This document shows, piece by piece, positions 7,047 to 45,929 of a stretch of DNA of 47,589 nucleotides. The notes under the pieces are model-generated. The model saw only the letters and a program-made list of their open reading frames with translations, was not told the origin of the DNA and did no database searches. The DNA is from an uncultured Candidatus Saccharibacteria bacterium (lineage in GTDB: Bacteria; Patescibacteriota; Minisyncoccia; Phycocordibacterales; PALSA-1337). The stretch is taken from the NCBI GenBank assembly GCA_964587205.1, contig CAZPKQ010000001.1:1-47589 (forward strand), in the 5' to 3' direction. Each line of letters begins with the position of its first letter. The stretch's first letter is position 1. The translations under genes and the position numbers were made by a program.

Positions 7047-7892
7047 CTACTTGGCTTGTTCGATTACCACTTGAGCTTCCGTAAGGATCTTTTCATGATC
7101 TTCCATCTTGATACCTATTCTCTGAAGTGCTTCTGGATGACCGACAAGATCAAGACAAACCACAATATCCATATTTGCTAATTCCTTCTTTTGATCGCGA
7201 GTAAGAGTAGTAAGACAAGCGATCGGTTGCAAACTATTTGCAAAAATCAGATCATGCAAATTGCCCTTTTCTGGATAATTCCAACCAAGTAATTTCATTG
7301 TATTACATTCACCGTATTGGATTGCTTTGTCGGTAAATTTTGTATTTGTAACCAACCACCTTTCGGTCAACTTTCTTTTTACACCGCCGTATTCGTATTC
7401 ATTGAATTGGATATCATCGTATCTAGCTTTGACATAAAGACTTACCTTGAGATCTGATTTCAGACCAAATTCATTGTGATATTTGGCTTCTACCATTGCT
7501 AGATCCAGACCTTTCCAAGCAACTACATCTACTTCATGTTCTACACACTTACCTATCACTGTCTGATCAGTCACACTTTCATAGCCCCACATTTTGAACA
7601 ATCTAGCTACAAATTTCTCAAATGGAAAACCATCAGGACCAAGCTCAACCATCGCTCTTCTGATAGAATACTTGGCTGCAATTTTTGTGGAATGTTTGCG
7701 CAACAATTCGAAAGCACGATTGTAAATCTCCGAGGTCGTCATACCATCATGAATCTCTCTTCCGATCTCATCGACAACATCGTCTATGGTCTCATCTGTC
7801 GCACCGACACGCTTCAATGAACTAACCAACTTCTCTTCTTCAAATAATTGTTTCGTTCCGTCAGACTTTGTAATTGTAATAAGGTGATTCAT
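7047..7892 (-). CDS. ATP-cone domain fused to a PD-(D/E)xK (Mrr-like) nuclease domain
   Basis: N-terminal ITITKSDGTKQLFEEEKLVSSLKRVG...SEIYNRAFELLRK is an ATP-cone pattern. C-terminal EVDVVAW...AMVEAKY fits D...ExK. I prefer the ATG at 7892; the track start at 7907 is GTG. Confidence 0.75.
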   Translation of the reverse strand: MNHLITITKSDGTKQLFEEEKLVSSLKRVGATDETIDDVVDEIGREIHDGMTTSEIYNRAFELLRKHSTKIAAKYSIRRAMVELGPDGFPFEKFVARLFKMWGYESVTDQTVIGKCVEHEVDVVAWKGLDLAMVEAKYHNEFGLKSDLKVSLYVKARYDDIQFNEYEYGGVKRKLTERWLVTNTKFTDKAIQYGECNTMKLLGWNYPEKGNLHDLIFANSLQPIACLTTLTRDQKKELANMDIVVCLDLVGHPEALQRIGIKMEDHEKILTEAQVVIEQAK

Positions 7893-27195: not shown

Positions 27196-27229
27196 CTTTA
27201 TTTTAAACTCTATGACACTACCGCCTTCA
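27196..27229. repeat. Copy B of the ychF-3'-end-like repeat
   Basis: Contains the 21-mer TTAAACTCTATGACACTACCG, identical to copy A. Covers the SET gene stop codon. Confidence 0.85.
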
Positions 27230-27629
27230 AATACTCATCATTACTTTCCTCATCTACCGCATCAATTGCTTGATAATCAATAGTCATTTCTTCTCCAATT
27301 TCAATATCTCTTGTAGCAACCGTGCAAATTTCAGCGTCACCTTCAGATAATTTTTCATCTTCAGCGATGTTTGGATTTGTAGAATGATTCGTGAATCTGG
27401 TGTTGTCGATAGAATAGACATATTTGCCACTCTTTTTCGAAAGATAAGCAAAATGGACTATCAAATCCTTTTGCAAGTCCGGCATTTTTTGTACCTCACT
27501 AGAATCAAAATATAAATCGAATCGTGGATCAAATTTCCAAGTCACAGTTCCTTTCGGAATAAACTGATCTGCGAATAATCCGATACCTTCAATGTGACTT
27601 TGTCCGATCTTAGTTTTAACAATTAGCAT
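27210..27629 (-). CDS. SET-domain protein (putative lysine methyltransferase)
   Basis: 139 aa with ...IEGIGLFADQFIPKGT..., ...RFTNHSTNPNI... and ...GEEMTIDY. TATAAT lies 6 nt upstream of the ATG. Confidence 0.8.
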   Translation of the reverse strand: MLIVKTKIGQSHIEGIGLFADQFIPKGTVTWKFDPRFDLYFDSSEVQKMPDLQKDLIVHFAYLSKKSGKYVYSIDNTRFTNHSTNPNIAEDEKLSEGDAEICTVATRDIEIGEEMTIDYQAIDAVDEESNDEYLKAVVS

Positions 27630-28084: not shown

Positions 28085-30787
28085 CTAACCCCTCAAATAC
28101 TTTTTGAGATATTTACCAGTATAACTATTGGCATTTTTCGCCACATCCTCCGGTGTACCTCTTGCGACAATATTACCTCCTCTTTCACCACCTTCTGGAC
28201 CAATATCGACGATATAGTCTGCGTTTTTAATTAAATCCAAATTGTGTTCGATAACTACTACGGTATTACCTTTGTCTACGAGCTTAGTCAAAATTTCTAT
28301 CAACTTCTTCACATCTTCATAATGCAAACCAACGGTCGGCTCATCGAGTAGATAGATAGTCTTTTGCAAATGTGCTCGATATAGCTCAGAAGAAATCTTG
28401 ACTCTTTGCGCTTCACCACCGGAGAGAGTCGTTGCAGATTGACCTAGCTTGATATAACCCAAACCAACATCCATGAGAGTTTGTAGACGATCTTCGACCG
28501 CTGGTATATCCTTGAAAAATTCCAAACCTTCTTCGATCGTCAATTCCAATACTTCATGAATATTCTTTTTGCGATACTTGATATCCAAAGTCTCCTTCAT
28601 GAAGCGTTTTCCATTACAAACATCACAAGTGACATAGACAGTCGGCAAGAAGTGCATCTCAACGGCTATTTCCCCATTACCCTCGCAGGCTTCACAGCGA
28701 CCACCAGGACGATTGAAAGAAAATCTTCCTGCCCCCCAACCACGCGCTCGAGCTTCCGGTTCACTAGCAAAAAGATCACGAATATGAGTCCAAGCGCCAG
28801 TATATGTAGCAGGATTTGATCTTGGAGTGCGTCCGATGGGAGATTGATCTATGAGGATTACTCGACCCAAATATTCTGAACCGGTAAAAGTTTTGCAATT
28901 AACTGTTTCATTACTTCTTACTCTAGCCTCCAGTCTTTTTTGTAAATTTCTATATAAAATTTCATACATAAGAGACGATTTACCGGATCCCGACACACCA
29001 GTGATGACATTTAGACTGCCGAGAGGAATTTCGACATCCATGTTTTTTATATTAAAAACTTTGCCACCTCTAATAGAAATCTTGCCCTTCGGTTCTCTTC
29101 TCTTTTCTGGAACAGGGATTTTCTCTTCACCTCGAAGATATGCCAAGGTCAAAGATCCGGTATGATTTTTCTTTGCTTCCAATAATTCTTGCAAATAACC
29201 AGAAGCAACCACGCGCCCACCATGGACGCCCGCTCCTAGACCGATATCAACAATATAATCAGAAGCATACATAGTATCTTCATCGTGTTCGACGACTACG
29301 ATAGTATTGCCCAAATCACGAAGCCTTATAAGAGTGCTGATAAGACGATCATTGTCTCTTTGATGTAGACCGATAGTCGGTTCATCTAGGACATAGAGAG
29401 CGCCAACTAACCCTGAACCAAGTTGTGAAGCGAGACGGATTCTTTGTGCCTCACCACCAGAAAGAGTATGCGCTCGTCTATCAAGAGTTAGATATTCGAT
29501 ACCGACATTGACCATGAAATGTAATCTTTCGCTAATTTCCTTGAGAACAACTTTGGCAATCTCTTTTTCTACTGGAGTCAAATTGATATTTTGGAAATAT
29601 TCTTCGGCTTTTTCTATTGACAATGAAGTCAACTCTACAATATTTTTACCGTCAATCAAAACACTCAAAGCTTCTTTTCTTAATCTTGCACCATTACAAG
29701 TCTTACATGGATCATCTGAGAAAATAGTCTCGGTACCCAAACCATTACAAGCTTCGCAAGCACCATAGGGTGAATTGAATGAAAAGAGTCTAGGCTCAAC
29801 TTCTGGATATGAAAAACCATCGTAAGGACACATGAACTTGACCGACATCAATTCGCCCATATAGTCTTTATTTTCACTTGGATATTCGATACGGATCAAA
29901 CCATCAGCTTCGTGAATAGCTCTTTCCAAAGATTCAGAAAGTCTTTCTCTAGCATTTTCGGCTATCTTTGCTTCTTCTTCGGTTATCTTACTCTTACCAT
30001 CACCGCTTCTAAATTCACTAATGAAAATCTCATCGACCAAAACTTCTATATCGTGCTTTTTATTTTTGTCCAAAACAATCCGATCTCTAAGTCTAAATTC
30101 TTGACCGTCAATCCTGACTCTTTCATAACCCTTACCCAAAAAGTCATAAAGCATTTGGTAATATTCTCCTTTGCGACCAAGGACGACTGGAGCATAAATC
30201 TTGATTTTGGCATTGCTAATATCGACACCAAAAACTTTTTTTGCCTTGGTCGTCCTTTCATTTATAGTCTGAAGAACAGTCTTCATGATCTCTTCTTTTG
30301 AAATACGGTTTATAGGTCTATTACATATGAGACAATGTGGTTTACCGATGCGAGCATAGAGGACGCGGAGATAATCATATATCTCGGTAATAGTAGCCAC
30401 TGTTGAGCGAGGATTATTTGATCTGGATTTCTGATCGATAGAAATGGCTGGCGACAGACCTGTAATCTCATCGACATCAGGCTTCTGCATTTTGTGGAGG
30501 AACTGACGCGCGTAGGCCGAAAGAGATTCGACATATCGTCGTTGCCCCTCGGCAAAAATAGTATCAAAAGCAAGAGAAGACTTGCCGGAACCAGAAAGGC
30601 CGGTAATAGCAATCATTTTGTTGCGAGGCATTTCAACCGTGATATTTTTGAGATTGTGAGTGCGCGCGCCCTTGACCACAATCTTGTCTTCTCGAGAAAT
30701 ATTGGTAGAGGCAGAACTGCGCACAGTAGAATGTTCGCGTGTATCGGAATTCGAATTTTGATTAACTAATTTTTTGCTTGGTGACAT
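28085..30787 (-). CDS. uvrA: Excinuclease ABC subunit A
   Basis: Two ABC modules (GLSGSGKSSL, GVSGSGKSSL, LSGGEAQR twice) and zinc-finger Cys clusters. I prefer the ATG at 30787 (the track start at 30808 is TTG). TGCTATTAT lies 9 nt upstream. Confidence 0.96.
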   Translation of the reverse strand: MSPSKKLVNQNSNSDTREHSTVRSSASTNISREDKIVVKGARTHNLKNITVEMPRNKMIAITGLSGSGKSSLAFDTIFAEGQRRYVESLSAYARQFLHKMQKPDVDEITGLSPAISIDQKSRSNNPRSTVATITEIYDYLRVLYARIGKPHCLICNRPINRISKEEIMKTVLQTINERTTKAKKVFGVDISNAKIKIYAPVVLGRKGEYYQMLYDFLGKGYERVRIDGQEFRLRDRIVLDKNKKHDIEVLVDEIFISEFRSGDGKSKITEEEAKIAENARERLSESLERAIHEADGLIRIEYPSENKDYMGELMSVKFMCPYDGFSYPEVEPRLFSFNSPYGACEACNGLGTETIFSDDPCKTCNGARLRKEALSVLIDGKNIVELTSLSIEKAEEYFQNINLTPVEKEIAKVVLKEISERLHFMVNVGIEYLTLDRRAHTLSGGEAQRIRLASQLGSGLVGALYVLDEPTIGLHQRDNDRLISTLIRLRDLGNTIVVVEHDEDTMYASDYIVDIGLGAGVHGGRVVASGYLQELLEAKKNHTGSLTLAYLRGEEKIPVPEKRREPKGKISIRGGKVFNIKNMDVEIPLGSLNVITGVSGSGKSSLMYEILYRNLQKRLEARVRSNETVNCKTFTGSEYLGRVILIDQSPIGRTPRSNPATYTGAWTHIRDLFASEPEARARGWGAGRFSFNRPGGRCEACEGNGEIAVEMHFLPTVYVTCDVCNGKRFMKETLDIKYRKKNIHEVLELTIEEGLEFFKDIPAVEDRLQTLMDVGLGYIKLGQSATTLSGGEAQRVKISSELYRAHLQKTIYLLDEPTVGLHYEDVKKLIEILTKLVDKGNTVVVIEHNLDLIKNADYIVDIGPEGGERGGNIVARGTPEDVAKNANSYTGKYLKKYLRG

Positions 30788-30832
30788 AACTGGCGGATAA
30801 TAGCACAAAAAAGCGCACTTGGCGAGTTGCTT

Positions 30833-30885
30833 CCCGAAGCTTCACCTCAGGGTATTTATAAGTTTGTGAGGTTTAACCTCACAAA
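30833..30885 (-). promoter_or_regulatory. Upstream module of uvrA: 23-bp palindrome P1 plus a conserved hairpin
   Basis: P1 is TTTGTGAGGTTTAACCTCACAAA (30863-30885), with 11-bp arms around one central nt. The hairpin is CCCGAAGCTTCACCTCAGGG (30833-30852). The same pair lies upstream of clpB. Confidence 0.7.
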
Positions 30886-30926
30886 AAATAAATAAAAGAA
30901 AACCCCCCAAGCTTTCGCAAGAGGGG
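30886..30926 (-). terminator. Intrinsic terminator ending the GC-rich unit
   Basis: Minus strand reads CCCCTCTTGC-GAAA-GCTTGGGGGG (GNRA loop) followed by TTTTCTTTTATTTATTTTTT. Confidence 0.8.
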
Positions 30927-31470
30927 TAAAGGGAGGAGCCGAGGGACAGAGTCCGTAGCCGTCCTACCCTTTCGGTGCCAGTTCGCGTTGCCGTTAGGCC
31001 GATTGCGAATGTGGTACGTTGCCACCCCAATACTGTACTGTTCGAAGTAAGGGGTGGCAGGTGGCTGGAGTGACAAGCGATGGTAAACGAGGGCGGGCAG
31101 CCCTAGCTCATTTACCAAGTTGTGCGTGTCACTCCCGCCGAGCCGGGCTGGTCAGCCGCTCGCCGGGGTCGTCGAGGCGAGGGTGCCGCCGGAGGTCGGG
31201 GTCGTCGTCGAGAATTTCGCTTTACCAGTGATGATCATCTGGCGATTCATCGGCGGTCCATTCATGTTGGCTCCTTGGGGGTCCTTAAACCCCCTTTGTA
31301 TGAGACGACCCCATTCGGGTGTCGTCTCGGTGTTGTTTGGCCCCACCGTCGTGGCGGGACCGGGTTCGTTGCACATTGGCCACGAGTTATCGCTTTTCCT
31401 TGCCCACTGGGCAGGTCGGCATTCCTCATCGGTCAACGTGTCTGGTAGTACTAGACACCTTTCATATTTT
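30927..31470 (-). other. GC-rich, helix-dense transcription unit of unknown nature (structured RNA and/or micro-protein gene)
   Basis: TTGACA lies upstream at 31472-31477 on the minus strand, and a terminator closes the unit at 30886-30926. Clear helices are listed in the findings. All six frames are open because of GC. Confidence 0.4.
31152..31265 (-). CDS. Possible 37-aa Thr/Ser/Pro/Gly-rich peptide
   Basis: ATG at 31265 with AAGGAG (31271-31276) 5 nt upstream. Peptide is MNGPPMNRQMIITGKAKFSTTTPTSGGTLASTTPASG. The frame is also open upstream, so the length is uncertain. Confidence 0.35.
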   Translation of the reverse strand: MNGPPMNRQMIITGKAKFSTTTPTSGGTLASTTPASG

Positions 31471-31598
31471 TTGTCAAGTGTTTGAATAGACCCAATGTAA
31501 TTGATCAAACTTAATAGAAAATACAAAATGATTATTAAGATAAATTACCTATATTTATAGCCATAAAATAAGTTGGGTATCATAAATCCGCACCTAAC

Positions 31599-31621
31599 TT
31601 TGCGAGGTTAAACCTCGCAAA
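31599..31621. promoter_or_regulatory. Palindrome P2
   Basis: TTTGCGAGGTTAAACCTCGCAAA, perfect 11+1+11. Lies between the clpB stop and the GC-rich unit. Confidence 0.7.
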
Positions 31622-31641
31622 AAATATATAAAATAAAACCC

Positions 31642-34323
31642 TTAGACTAGACCTCGAGAGAAATCTGGTACAACAACAGGACTTTCACCTTTTGAGCGTT
31701 TTTTGATGTCAAATGTAAACTTGTCATTTCGATAATCAACGGTAATCCTACCTCCCTTCGAGACATCTTGGGCGATCAGATGATTTGCCACTGGTGTCAG
31801 GATCTTGGTCTGTATCAATCTACGCAAAGGTCTTGCTCCGTATTGAGGATTGTAACCTTCTTTTGCCAAATATTCGTATACGGAAGGAGTGACTACAAGA
31901 TCGATTTGTTTGTCAGCCAATCTTCGGATGATTTCACCAACCTGTATCTCAACAATTTTCTTGATTGATTCAACATTCAAAATATCAAAGATAATTATGT
32001 CATCTATACGATTTAGAAATTCTGGACGGAAATAATCCTTGAGAGCAGAATTAATCTTGCTCTTTGCTTCATCATAATTGTCTCGATCACGATTGTCAGT
32101 ATTTGCAGCAAAACCCAATTTTTCCATTCTTTGGATATGCTGAGCGCCGATATTGGAAGTCATGATAATAACCGTATTTCGGAAATTGACTGTTCTGCCT
32201 TTGGAATCTGTAAGTTTTCCATTATCAAGAACCTGAAGGAGAATATTGAAAACTTCAGGATGAGCTTTTTCTATTTCATCAAAAAGAATGACAGAATAAG
32301 GTCGATGACGAACCATTTCGGTCAAACCACCTGATTCGTCAAATCCGACATAGCCTGGAGGAGCACCGATCAATTTTGATACGGAATGCTTTTCCATAAA
32401 TTCGGACATATCGACTCTGATCAAAGCTTTTTCATCATTGAATAGAAATTCTGCCAAAGCTTTTGTAAGTTCGGTCTTACCGACTCCTGTAGGACCAAGG
32501 AAAATGAATGAACCAATAGGGCGATTTGGATCTGCGATACCAGCTCTCGAACGTCTGATTGTATCTGCGATCTTCTGGACAGCTTCATTTTGACCGACTA
32601 CCCTCTTTTCCAATTCGGCTTCCATCCTTGTAAGCTTGATCGCTTCTGACTCAAGCATCCTTGTGACAGGTATACCTGTCCAACGCGAGACCACATCCGC
32701 TATGTCTTCTGATGTTATCTCTTCTTTTAGAATTCTCCTCGACGCTTGTAGTTTCCTCAAGCGCTTGTTTTTGGTCTCTAACTCTTTTTCTAAACTAGGT
32801 ATTTTGCCATAGCGAATCTCAGCTGCTTTTGCTAGGTCTGACCTCGCTTCTGCAGCTTCTCCTTCTATCCTTATCGCTTCCAACTCTTTTTTGAGTTTCT
32901 TGATACTTGCTATGGTTTCCTTTTCATTTTTCCATTTCAATTCGAGTTCGCTAGTACCTTCCTTTAGGTCTGCGATCTCTTTTTCGATCGCTTGCATTCT
33001 TGCCTTAGCGACTTTGTCACTTTCTTTCTTCAATGCTTCACGCTCAATCTCCAAACGCATAATCTTGCGTCTGGTCTCTTCAAGCTGTGGTGGCATATTT
33101 TCTAGAGATATACGCAATGAAGAAGAGGCTTCATCGATAAGATCGACTACCTTGTCAGGCAAGAATCTGTCGGCAATATAACGACTTGCAAGATTGACAG
33201 CCGAAACAATCGCATCGTCTGTAATCCTGACACCATGATAAAGCTCGTATTTTTCTTTGAGACCACGCAAGATAGCTATAGCATCCTCGACGCTTGGTTC
33301 ATTGACATGGACTGGTTGGAATCTTCTTGTAAGCGCTGGGTCCTTCTCAATATGCTTTTGATATTCTTTGAGTGTAGTCGCTCCGATTGCTCGCAACTCA
33401 CCTCGAGCCAAAGCTGGTTTTAGCATATTTGAGGCATCCATAGAACCTTCCGATGCACCAGCACCGACAAGAGTATGGATCTCATCTATAAATAAAATAA
33501 TCTTGCCTTCTGATTTTTCTACTTCTTTCAAAATGTTTTTGAGTCTCTCTTCGAACTCTCCGCGATATTTTGTCCCCGCAATAAGTGAACCGAGATCAAG
33601 CGAAACAAGCTCTTTATCCTTCAATGATTCTGGCACATCACCTTGAGCCATACGGATCGCCAAACCTTCGACAATAGCAGTCTTACCAACACCAGCTTCA
33701 CCGATAAGGATCGGATTGTTCTTTGTGCGTCTTGATAGTATCTGAATAATGCGCATGATTTCAGAATCACGACCGATCACTGGATCGAGTTTATTTTCGT
33801 GAGCGAGCTTAGTAAGCGATCGAGCATATTTAAATAATGTTCGGAATTTTTTTGGTTCGGCACCTTTTGCATTTGGATTGGCTTTGATCTCATCGATAAC
33901 CTTCGAAACCGCTTGTCTCTCGATCTTGAAACGGGCAAGAATGTCTTTTGCACTACAAGGAACATCGAATATCGACAAGAAAATGTGTTCGGTAGATATA
34001 AATTCATCTTTGAAACTTGAAGCGATCTTGACCGAATTGTCCAAAATCTGAGCTAGATCTGGAGTGAGATAGATCTGGTATGAAGGTGATAAGACATTGG
34101 AACCTTCGGGTGATTCGATATTTTCCAAGACAACATCGATAAGCATCGGAGTATCTATCTCCAACTTGTCCAAAATAGAAGCAACCATGCTTTCCTCCTG
34201 CAATACCAAAGCACAAAGCAAATGAATAGGATTTACATGGTTTTGTCCCCTTTCTATGGCCAATTCATGGGCTCTCCTAAGCGCTTCTTTGGCTTTTGTA
34301 GTCAATTTATTTAATGGAGGCAT
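31642..34323 (-). CDS. clpB: ATP-dependent chaperone ClpB
   Basis: 893 aa with two AAA+ modules ([30 protein letters not shown]) and a long middle coiled coil. TAGTAT lies 6 nt upstream of the ATG. Confidence 0.96.
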
Positions 34324-34363
34324 AACAACATACTAATACAGAAATATAGCCATAGTCAATCTA

Positions 34364-34411
34364 CCCCGAGGTTTCACCTCAGGTGTTCTATTGCGAGGTT
34401 AAACCTCGCAA
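34364..34411 (-). promoter_or_regulatory. Upstream module of clpB: palindrome P3 plus a conserved hairpin
   Basis: P3 is TTGCGAGGTTAAACCTCGCAA (34391-34411). The hairpin is CCCCGAGGTTTCACCTCAGG (34364-34383). The hairpin ends 4 nt before TTGACT (34354-34359). Confidence 0.7.
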
Positions 34412-45906: not shown

Positions 45907-45929
45907 TTTGCGAGGTTAAACCTCACAAA
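45907..45929. promoter_or_regulatory. Palindrome P4 in the kinase/def divergent intergenic region
   Basis: TTTGCGAGGTTAAACCTCACAAA, with one arm mismatch. Confidence 0.65.

Follow-up and report, generated by a model that had tools for sequence, protein, structure and literature searches.

A GC-rich cassette between clpB and uvrA in a narrow Patescibacteria clade: a conserved, predicted structured RNA with a putative micro-ORF

In the 47,589-nt stretch of DNA analysed here (the window; contig CAZPKQ010000001.1 of assembly GCA_964587205.1, from an uncultured Candidatus Saccharibacteria bacterium), the minus-strand genes clpB (31642-34323) and uvrA (ATG at 30787) are separated by a GC-rich block, with proS upstream and uvrC downstream. 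The closest ClpB sequences come from metagenome-assembled genomes of Patescibacteria labelled Saccharibacteria, Paceibacterota or Parcubacteria. The core of the block (30895-31443, minus strand; the unit) has 59.6% GC against 38.4% for the whole window, with 60% in the 300-nt segments starting at 31000 and 31150. All 500-nt bins of the window outside the unit are at or below 49% GC, so that the block is indeed its strongest compositional anomaly, as a first-pass annotation made from the sequence alone had pointed out; the single tRNA-Ala of the window has 64% GC. The landmarks listed in that annotation, namely TTGACA, the GAGACGAC/GTCGTCTC and GGGGG/CCCCC hairpins, AAGGAG, a 37-codon open reading frame (ORF), two stems and a terminator, are all present where it had placed them. 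A chimeric assembly join, which it had considered, was dismissed because the same junctions are found in two independent ENA assemblies (100% and 99.96% identity). The block is a real, conserved and previously undescribed gene, carried by a few related uncultured Patescibacteria of a narrow clade.

To obtain homologues, contigs encoding ClpB relatives (88-92% identity) were retrieved and their clpB-uvrA spacer was inspected. The order proS-clpB-uvrA-uvrC is conserved among these relatives, and the spacer is either short (60-150 nt; L083-85, L088 and L094-97) or long and GC-rich (680-850 nt; L086/L087, L093, L099 and L100). Five homologues of the unit were found in this spacer, along with three close lineages with empty sites; the sixth copy of the unit, at L089, was reached through a spurious antisense ORF. 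Three further variants are implied in NCBI, ENA and Logan data by an exhaustive profile-free search with a spurious antisense ORF of this kind. A covariance model (R1) built on the 3′-terminal 90 nt hit every filled locus exactly once and nothing else in 219 kb. The unit is absent from the closest GTDB representatives, L003 and L004 (72-74% identity in the ClpB C-terminus). In L003 a sequence judged tRNA-like by eye lies in its place downstream of clpB (7150-7245), and uvrA is not adjacent.

We compared the unit with known RNA and protein families. At the gathering threshold, Rfam 15 gave no match on the unit in the window or at the five homologous loci, and at E <= 10 the matches in window and homologues were at chance level, all well below gathering. 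The families covered included RNase P, tmRNA, SRP, 6S, OLE, ROOL, GOLLD, HEARO, RNAIII, introns and riboswitches. ARAGORN found no tmRNA and only the tRNA-Ala elsewhere in the window; both scans agree with the first-pass annotation, in which no RNase P, tmRNA or SRP signature had been seen. At the protein level, Pfam returned nothing for the 124-, 121- and 108-aa ORFs crossing the block, and the 124-aa sense ORF, searched against 5.8 billion proteins, matched only the NCBI annotation of this same contig. Back-translated patterns were found neither in viral nor in JGI metagenome contigs, three DNA motifs were not found in viral contigs, and blastn gave no match to plasmids and phages. The 3′ motif had just two chance matches in JGI metagenomes, both in high-GC coding DNA. 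No description of the unit RNA was found in the literature.

The unit carries transcription signals at both ends. A sigma-70-type promoter on the minus strand (31450-31477) is composed of the -35 box TTGACA (31477-31472), a 16-nt spacer and the -10 box TCTAGT (31455-31450). The -35 region CTTGACAA is common to all five copies that include the 5′ end. It is followed, after 16-17 nt, by TCTAGT in the window and by TATAGT, TATACT or TAGGAT in the relatives, and then by a conserved CAGAC start region. The -10 box of the window is weak, for which reason a consensus promoter scanner missed this promoter. From the predicted start at about A31443, the predicted RNA of about 549 nt would run to about 30895, where an intrinsic terminator is located (30895-30925, minus strand; CCCCTCTTGC-GAAA-GCTTGGGGGG followed by TTTTCTTTT, flagged by the scan at 30924-30903). 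A GC hairpin followed by a U tract terminates the unit in 6/6 copies. The promoter and terminator expected of a dual-function RNA are thus found in silico (TTGACA-16/17-TAnnnT; hairpin and U tract conserved where covered). The 'start-proximal hairpin' proposed earlier at 31438-31458 had to be abandoned: it overlaps the -10 box, lies mostly upstream of the predicted start and is not kept in the homologues, and corresponds to promoter DNA. On the plus strand, the consensus-based scan found no promoter-like site within the unit, its sole plus-strand site (31554-31583) lying in the AT-rich spacer next to it, and only weak terminator-like hairpins.

The minus strand of the unit folds with a minimum free energy of -243 kcal/mol, as compared with -196 +/- 7 kcal/mol for dinucleotide shuffles (z = -6.9, reached by 0/100). 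The plus strand gave z = -4.4, and two homologues z = -4.8 and -5.2. An RNAalifold consensus was derived from an alignment of the six units (A2, mean column identity 70%) and contains 110 pairs, 21 with compensatory changes, arranged in about 11 hairpins. Five spurious pairs between promoter and U tail were removed, and counts were made on the remaining 105. Standard pairs occupy 92% of the cells, versus 39-46% when partners were slid by 1-3 columns and 87.3 +/- 0.6% in shuffles (0/500 reach 92%). Both sides have changed in 20/105 pairs, versus 8.5 +/- 2.1 in shuffles (0/500 reach 20) and 1-6 upon sliding. Paired alignment columns are also richer in GC than unpaired ones (70-79% vs 49-52%).

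The best-supported helices are 31361-31353/31347-31339, 31325-31316/31310-31300, 31415-31409/31405-31398, the long hairpin 31135-31067 and 30972-30928, all on the minus strand like the features that follow. The RNA would start with a structured 5′ leader of about 178 nt (31266-31443), whose closing stem (31440-31431/31381-31372) is seen in single-sequence folds of the window and of two homologues. Leader hairpins lie at 31415-31398, 31361-31339 and 31325-31300; RNAalifold helices 1, 3 and 4 each have two pairs changed on both sides, and the GGGGG/CCCCC hairpin (31294-31279) adjoins the Shine-Dalgarno (SD)-like AAGGAG (31276-31271). On the other side of the ORF, just after its stop, comes a conserved non-coding block, CCCGGCTCGGCGGGAG (31132-31147), a 16-mer common to three copies. 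A long composite 3′ hairpin (31067-31135; GGAGTGACA...TGTCACTCC with inner stems) has 8 pairs changed on both sides in helices 11, 12 and 14. Two further hairpins (30990-31059; helices 15-17) are formed by GCCACCCC...GGGGTGGC (31059-31020) and GCC-UAAC-GGC (30999-30990); in L086 and L099 the hairpin 31059-31020 is swapped for a different sequence, which is still hairpin-forming. The most conserved segment of the unit (30928-30979; helices 6, 18 and 19) includes GGCACC (30979-30974) and then the irregular hairpin AAAGGGTAGGACGGCTACGGAC-TCT-GTCCCTCGGCTCCTCCCTTT (30972-30928), which is near-invariant with one compensatory A-U to U-A change, in L100. With compensatory helix changes well above the shuffled and slid controls and no known family, these observations bear out the earlier suggestion of a novel structured RNA. 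On comparative grounds, the covarying, conserved non-coding domains show selection on the RNA.

A micro-ORF of 37 codons and a TGA (31152-31265, minus strand) is located in the middle of the predicted RNA, directly downstream of AAGGAG. The sequence ATGAATGG(A/T)CCGCC is present in 6/6 copies, and a TGA follows 111-144 nt later, 4-7 nt before the conserved CCCGGCNCGGC. The ATG-to-TGA distances (111, 111, 120, 144, 126 and 126 nt) are all multiples of 3, and the interiors of the ORF are just 24-65% identical among copies and barely alignable. The +1 frame is interrupted by stops in 6/6 copies. Taken naively, six ORFs would all be stop-free and in frame with a joint probability of about 3e-5; a conservative estimate with four independent lineages gives about 1.5e-3. 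An SD-like hexamer (AAGGAG, AAGGTG, AAAGAG or CTGGAG) stands 4-6 nt upstream of the ATG in 5/6 copies. The ORF is thus kept in frame, with conserved start and stop, in all copies despite changes in length, as would be expected of the micro-protein module once suggested for this block, and it is probably translated.

The deduced peptides are of 37 aa in the window (MNGPPMNRQMIITGKAKFSTTTPTSGGTLASTTPASG) and in L086 (MNGPPRFNLNQSIHSAKSTFTPASGATALASMTTATA), 40 aa in L089 (MNGPPRTVSVSTKIYYLKFPTTLTPTSGGTTLASMTTATA), 48 aa in L093 (MNGPPRIVSVNTKNGSRYGIFYHSTSTTSGASPALALYSSATPATASG) and 42 aa in both L099 (MNGPPQFTQIFNTNGSQNGIYFQSTTPASGANARIASTFASG) and L100 (MNGPPNRNSTINHSSKKFPNSTTTPTPASGAIDRLVSTFASG). 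They share a common plan: all begin with the invariant MNGPP, are hypervariable in the middle and end in a Thr/Ser/Ala/Gly tail that is semi-conserved. Synonymous changes occur within MNGPP (GGA/GGT, CCG/CCC) and at Arg6 (CGT/CGA/CGC). All six peptides are polar and basic (net charge +1 to +3), with 55-65% Ser/Thr/Pro/Gly/Ala and no Cys. Their grand average of hydropathy ranges from -0.02 to -0.72, the maximal 15-residue hydropathy is at most 0.78, and no hydrophobic segment is present. None of the six matched Pfam or NCBIfam.

Longer frames also cross the unit. The frame of the window micro-ORF remains open for 90 more codons past its TGA (30895-31151, minus strand) and is not conserved in L086; UGA read-through was rejected, this open frame being a coincidence of GC-rich sequence. 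Spurious public gene calls of 87-196 aa lie on the unit, in the sense direction in the NCBI record of this contig and antisense in the relatives (window 31152-31526, minus strand; L093 4677-5078; L099 5431-6015; L100 5645-6235; L086 7972-8418). The long ORFs on the opposite strand, which reach 222 codons in L099 and L100, were likewise rejected as genes, since their frame shifts between homologues. These spurious ORFs are nevertheless useful handles for finding homologues in protein databases.

The consensus fold places the ribosome-binding site (RBS) in long-range helices. The SD region GGAGCC (31274-31269) pairs with GGCACC (30979-30974) just before the 3′ hairpin, with a compensatory change in L086 (UGUGCC/GGCACA). 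Codons 4-5, CCGCCG (31256-31251), pair with the post-stop CGGCGG (31140-31135) in helix 7, in which a CCG to CCC change breaks one predicted pair. In the window's own fold, the post-stop GGCUC instead pairs with the SD region (P = 0.97). In single-sequence ensembles the SD-like bases are predicted to be paired in 6/6 copies (P = 0.6-1.0). In these models the RBS is probably closed by pairing with downstream RNA. Codons 3-5 encode Gly-Pro-Pro, a motif of a type known to pause ribosomes, and a Pro-Pro pause at this point of the micro-ORF is a speculative addition.

Presence of the unit varies between close relatives. Filled and empty clpB-uvrA spacers both exist, and filled and empty alleles are interleaved in the ClpB tree. 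The filled L093 and the empty L083 have about 100% identical ClpB, and their alignment contains one clean 718-nt difference, made up of the unit plus one 69-nt direct repeat of local spacer (88% identity). In the window the counterpart of this repeat is a 47-nt direct repeat with a spacing of 736 nt and 87% identity (30859-30905 and 31595-31641). The palindromes P1 and P2 do bound the block, but as parts of this repeat; the insertion-like layout with target duplication noticed at first sight is recovered as a filled/empty indel comprising the unit and one long repeat copy. The upstream 47-nt module (31595-31641, minus strand) follows directly after the clpB stop codon (31642-31644) and holds P2 (31599-31621). 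The downstream module (30859-30905, minus strand) holds P1 (30863-30885); it shares sequence with the tail of the terminator and lies ahead of the uvrA promoter. Between P2 and the promoter of the unit, an AT-rich spacer (31479-31594, minus strand; 26% GC) is lineage-specific and lies outside the conserved unit; it is absent or different in L086, L093, L099 and L100.

Alleles of the unit are mosaic. Between L086 and L099 the ClpB and uvrA starts are 100% identical, the leaders are identical and the flanks agree at 95-100%, while identity drops to 48-75% in the ORF and to 70-90% within parts of the 3′ region. The nearest neighbour among unit copies shifts segment by segment, as measured by segment-wise identities, and the alleles therefore recombine. 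A filled allele (L089) and an empty one (L096) occur in one sample. Separately, L086 6680-9416 shows patches of 82-93% identity to L099 inside clpB, despite the 100% identical uvrA starts, which indicates frequent homologous recombination in the population, independent of the unit. The likeliest history is a single acquisition in the ancestor of the clade, followed by repeat-mediated loss and homologous exchange of alleles; alternatively, independent insertions may each have made long duplications. We found no recombinase, no terminal inverted repeats and no extra copies of the unit in the window and the homologous loci, and no second copy or template of the diversity-generating retroelement type in the window. 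A transposable element, a miniature inverted-repeat element or an integron cassette was rejected for lack of a recombinase, for the single copy at the same site and for flanks that are 47-69-nt direct repeats, 87-88% identical, instead of terminal inverted ones. For an integron attC site in particular, the core-site-like heptamers are mutually non-complementary and are absent from the L093 repeat.

Taken together, these results suggest that a small Patescibacteria clade carries the block as a self-contained accessory gene, whose lineage-restricted RNA would be both structured and coding and would resemble RNAIII in architecture. We give this description as a whole a probability of about 0.6. 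From the sigma-70-type promoter (31477-31450), a minus-strand transcript of about 550 nt would be made, end at the terminator (30925-30895) and fold into about 11 conserved hairpins. The mid-RNA micro-ORF (37 codons, 37-48 in relatives) would be translated from an RBS that is probably shut by long-range pairs, GGAGCC with the 3′ GGCACC or with the post-stop GGCUC, while codons 4-5 would be paired with the post-stop CGGCGG. Peptide synthesis could then depend on the RNA fold, taking place during transcription or after melting or processing; we hold this gating with less confidence than the description as a whole. In the clpB-uvrA spacer the gene forms a cassette of about 0.72-0.74 kb, set between direct repeats, gained or lost among near-identical strains and represented by mosaic alleles.

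Several points weigh against this description. The comparison covers six sequences from some four lineages, and one and the same alignment served both to derive the structure and to count its pairs. Helix 7 is invariant and so unproven, and the partner of the SD varies between homologues in single-sequence folds. In L086 the SD is degenerate (AATGTG). GC at third codon positions of the ORF is 0.79-0.86 versus 0.30-0.36 in host genes, with host-rare codons. The helices covary above controls and the frame is kept in 6/6 copies, but the ratio of nonsynonymous to synonymous change (pN/pS) across the ORF is about 1, and the peptide sequence as a whole is therefore without detectable purifying selection. 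The pN/pS and codon usage would suit a purely non-coding structured RNA in which the ORF is an untranslated by-product of GC-rich sequence. So would the weak L086 hexamer, which co-varies with its distal partner like a structural element, and the C-terminal codon conservation, which is at the nucleotide level. Such an RNA would not, however, be expected to keep start, stop and frame in six of six copies through length changes, with stops in the +1 frame of each, nor to accumulate synonymous changes within MNGPP; the CCG to CCC change that breaks a helix 7 pair suggests that the peptide and not the pairing is selected there. We regard this explanation as unlikely. The converse, an ordinary small-protein gene whose peptide (an exported signal, a bacteriocin-like product or the precursor of a ribosomally synthesized and post-translationally modified peptide, RiPP) is the sole product and whose untranslated regions (UTRs) stabilise or regulate the mRNA, appears comparably unlikely. 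A hypervariable interior between conserved ends and mosaic alleles among near-identical strains, a pattern known from pheromone and bacteriocin loci, speak for it. Against it, conservation is higher in the UTRs, which make up about 430 of 550 nt, than inside the ORF, the 50 most conserved nt are non-coding, and the conserved N-terminal part of the peptide spans just 5 residues. Nor do the neighbours proS, clpB, uvrA and uvrC include a modifying enzyme or a transporter, or the peptide, which has no hydrophobic stretch, a signal peptide; of the traits of a RiPP or pheromone precursor, the variable interior is seen and adjacent modification or export genes are not.

The remaining alternatives concern the locus more than the product. 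The unit is co-oriented with uvrA and directly upstream of it, and a short Thr-rich ORF is followed by hairpins and a terminator, as in a cis-acting leader-peptide attenuator that would govern read-through into uvrA. Since an extended -10 promoter of its own precedes the uvrA ATG by 7-10 nt in filled and empty alleles alike, the regulatory role on uvrA once allowed for is unlikely. Attenuation in particular is very unlikely, because between the stop codon of the ORF and the terminator lie about 225 nt holding five conserved hairpins, a layout unlike that of attenuators, and the strong terminator in turn stands before the uvrA promoter; moreover, the unit is dispensable in close relatives. Slightly less probable still is an addiction module resembling type I toxin-antitoxin systems, or else what is left of a mobile element; the present/absent cassette between direct repeats, the composition foreign to the host and a structured mRNA with a predicted sequestered SD of the hok type might point this way. 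The peptide is polar and basic without a membrane helix, contrary to a toxin (no 15-residue segment exceeds a hydropathy of 0.8). No antisense promoter was found in the unit by the consensus-based scan and no transposase or integrase is associated with it; each genome fragment holds a single copy at the same locus, and plasmid, phage and viral collections yielded nothing. As to a functionless relic from a high-GC donor or an assembly artefact, 60% GC in a 38% GC genome and one frame nearly open across the block in the window would fit, but independent assemblies agree, and GC, promoter, terminator and helices are maintained with compensatory changes across units about 70% identical. Neither the long open frame nor the antisense ORFs keep their frame among homologues, and no protein homologue was found; the probability of this last alternative is negligible.

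The reading as an RNA both structured and coding can be compared with known systems. RNAIII of Staphylococcus aureus is 514 nt long, has 14 stem-loops and carries hld, the ORF for the 26-aa delta-haemolysin, whose translation is delayed, possibly via an intramolecular interaction with the 3′ end (PMC12612679). The unit shares with RNAIII-type dual-function RNAs (Pel, Psm-mec, SR1, SgrS, AzuCR) a stand-alone predicted transcript of about 0.5 kb with many hairpins and an internal small ORF, and with RNAIII itself an SD predicted to pair with a 3′ segment. It differs from RNAIII in having no sequence or covariance-model similarity to it, a Patescibacterium as host and no agr-like system nearby, as well as in the hypervariable interior of its ORF and its present/absent location between direct repeats. 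Long-distance pairing closes the RBS in hok mRNA, by fold-back inhibition, and in the MS2 maturation-protein gene. Sequences at a distance of more than 100 nt are similarly predicted to sequester the SD and start region of the unit, and translation would then be limited to nascent or remodelled RNA, as with hok and MS2. The likeness is weakened by the single compensatory change behind these long-range helices; unlike hok, the peptide is no membrane toxin and the consensus-based scan found no antisense RNA. Like the attenuator leader peptide thrL (21 aa, Thr/Ile-rich), the unit has a short ORF, here Thr/Ser-rich, that precedes hairpins and a terminator and is co-oriented with the gene that follows. 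In contrast to thrL, a long, structured stretch separates stop codon and terminator, the gene downstream is served by a promoter of its own, and the host is not expected to hold a matching biosynthetic operon. Intergenic screens of AT-rich genomes have uncovered large GC-rich structured RNAs such as OLE, ROOL, GOLLD and raiA (PMC11109978, PMC6429828). Like them, the unit is a long intergenic region far above genome GC with many conserved helices, but it has no Rfam 15 match, includes an ORF that is conserved and translatable, and is very narrowly distributed.

Patescibacteria, or Candidate Phyla Radiation, have tiny genomes with few accessory genes and, to our knowledge, almost nothing is known of their regulatory RNAs or small proteins. 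With about 550 nt at tRNA-like GC in a 38% GC genome, compensatory pairs, a frame-conserved micro-ORF and strain-level presence/absence, the unit is a candidate, concrete and open to testing, for the first dual-function RNA in this group. Public annotations that misplace spurious 87-196-aa ORFs on such units, on either strand, point to systematic mis-annotation. A more ambitious and quite improbable proposal would see in the unit a new class of cassette, exchanged among episymbiotic Patescibacteria and combining an RNA with a hypervariable peptide. The RNA would then act in trans as a regulator or scaffold, and the peptide, diversified by allele exchange between strains, would serve strain-specific recognition, signalling or antagonism, with its output gated by the RNA clamps and the Pro-Pro pause.

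The palindrome TTGYGAGGTTWAACCTCRCAA has 4 copies in the window (30864, 31600, 34391 and 45908) versus 0 expected. Its fourth copy lies between a 356-aa ORF without identity and def/fmt. Palindromes of the form GAGG-N5-CCTC number 5 in the window versus 0.24 expected (30833-30885, 34364-34411 and 45908-45928). In both the uvrA and the clpB promoters, the long palindrome is followed, 12-20 nt on, by a hairpin motif, CC(C)TGAGGTGAA[GA]C[TC]TCGGG, just before the -35 box, and spacer hairpins of the GAGGTGCAGCCTC type are kept by relatives. The palindrome and the second hairpin motif may form the operator pair of a stress regulon, or they may be a repetitive extragenic palindromic (REP)-like element. 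The distance from the palindrome to the -35 box of the unit is about 120 nt in the window and 7 nt in L093. Upstream of the unit in L086, L099 and L100 the long palindrome is missing and only a GAGG-N5-CCTC hairpin is found. Because of this varying distance and of its absence from three homologues, shared regulation of the unit with clpB and uvrA, as imagined in the first-pass annotation, cannot be claimed.

The -10 box of the uvrA promoter, TATTAT, ends at 30797. The genes uvrA and clpB start 7-10 nt past their -10 box (TGTGCTATTAT for uvrA, TAGTAT for clpB), without an SD (30787-30830 and 34323-34360, minus strand), and their mRNAs are, by this spacing, probably leaderless. A SET-domain protein gene (139 aa; 27210-27629, minus strand; Pfam SET, E = 1.9e-14) is located between uvrA and uvrC. 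The uvrA genes of relatives have the same start arrangement, TGTGTTACAAT-CCGCCAGTT-ATG.

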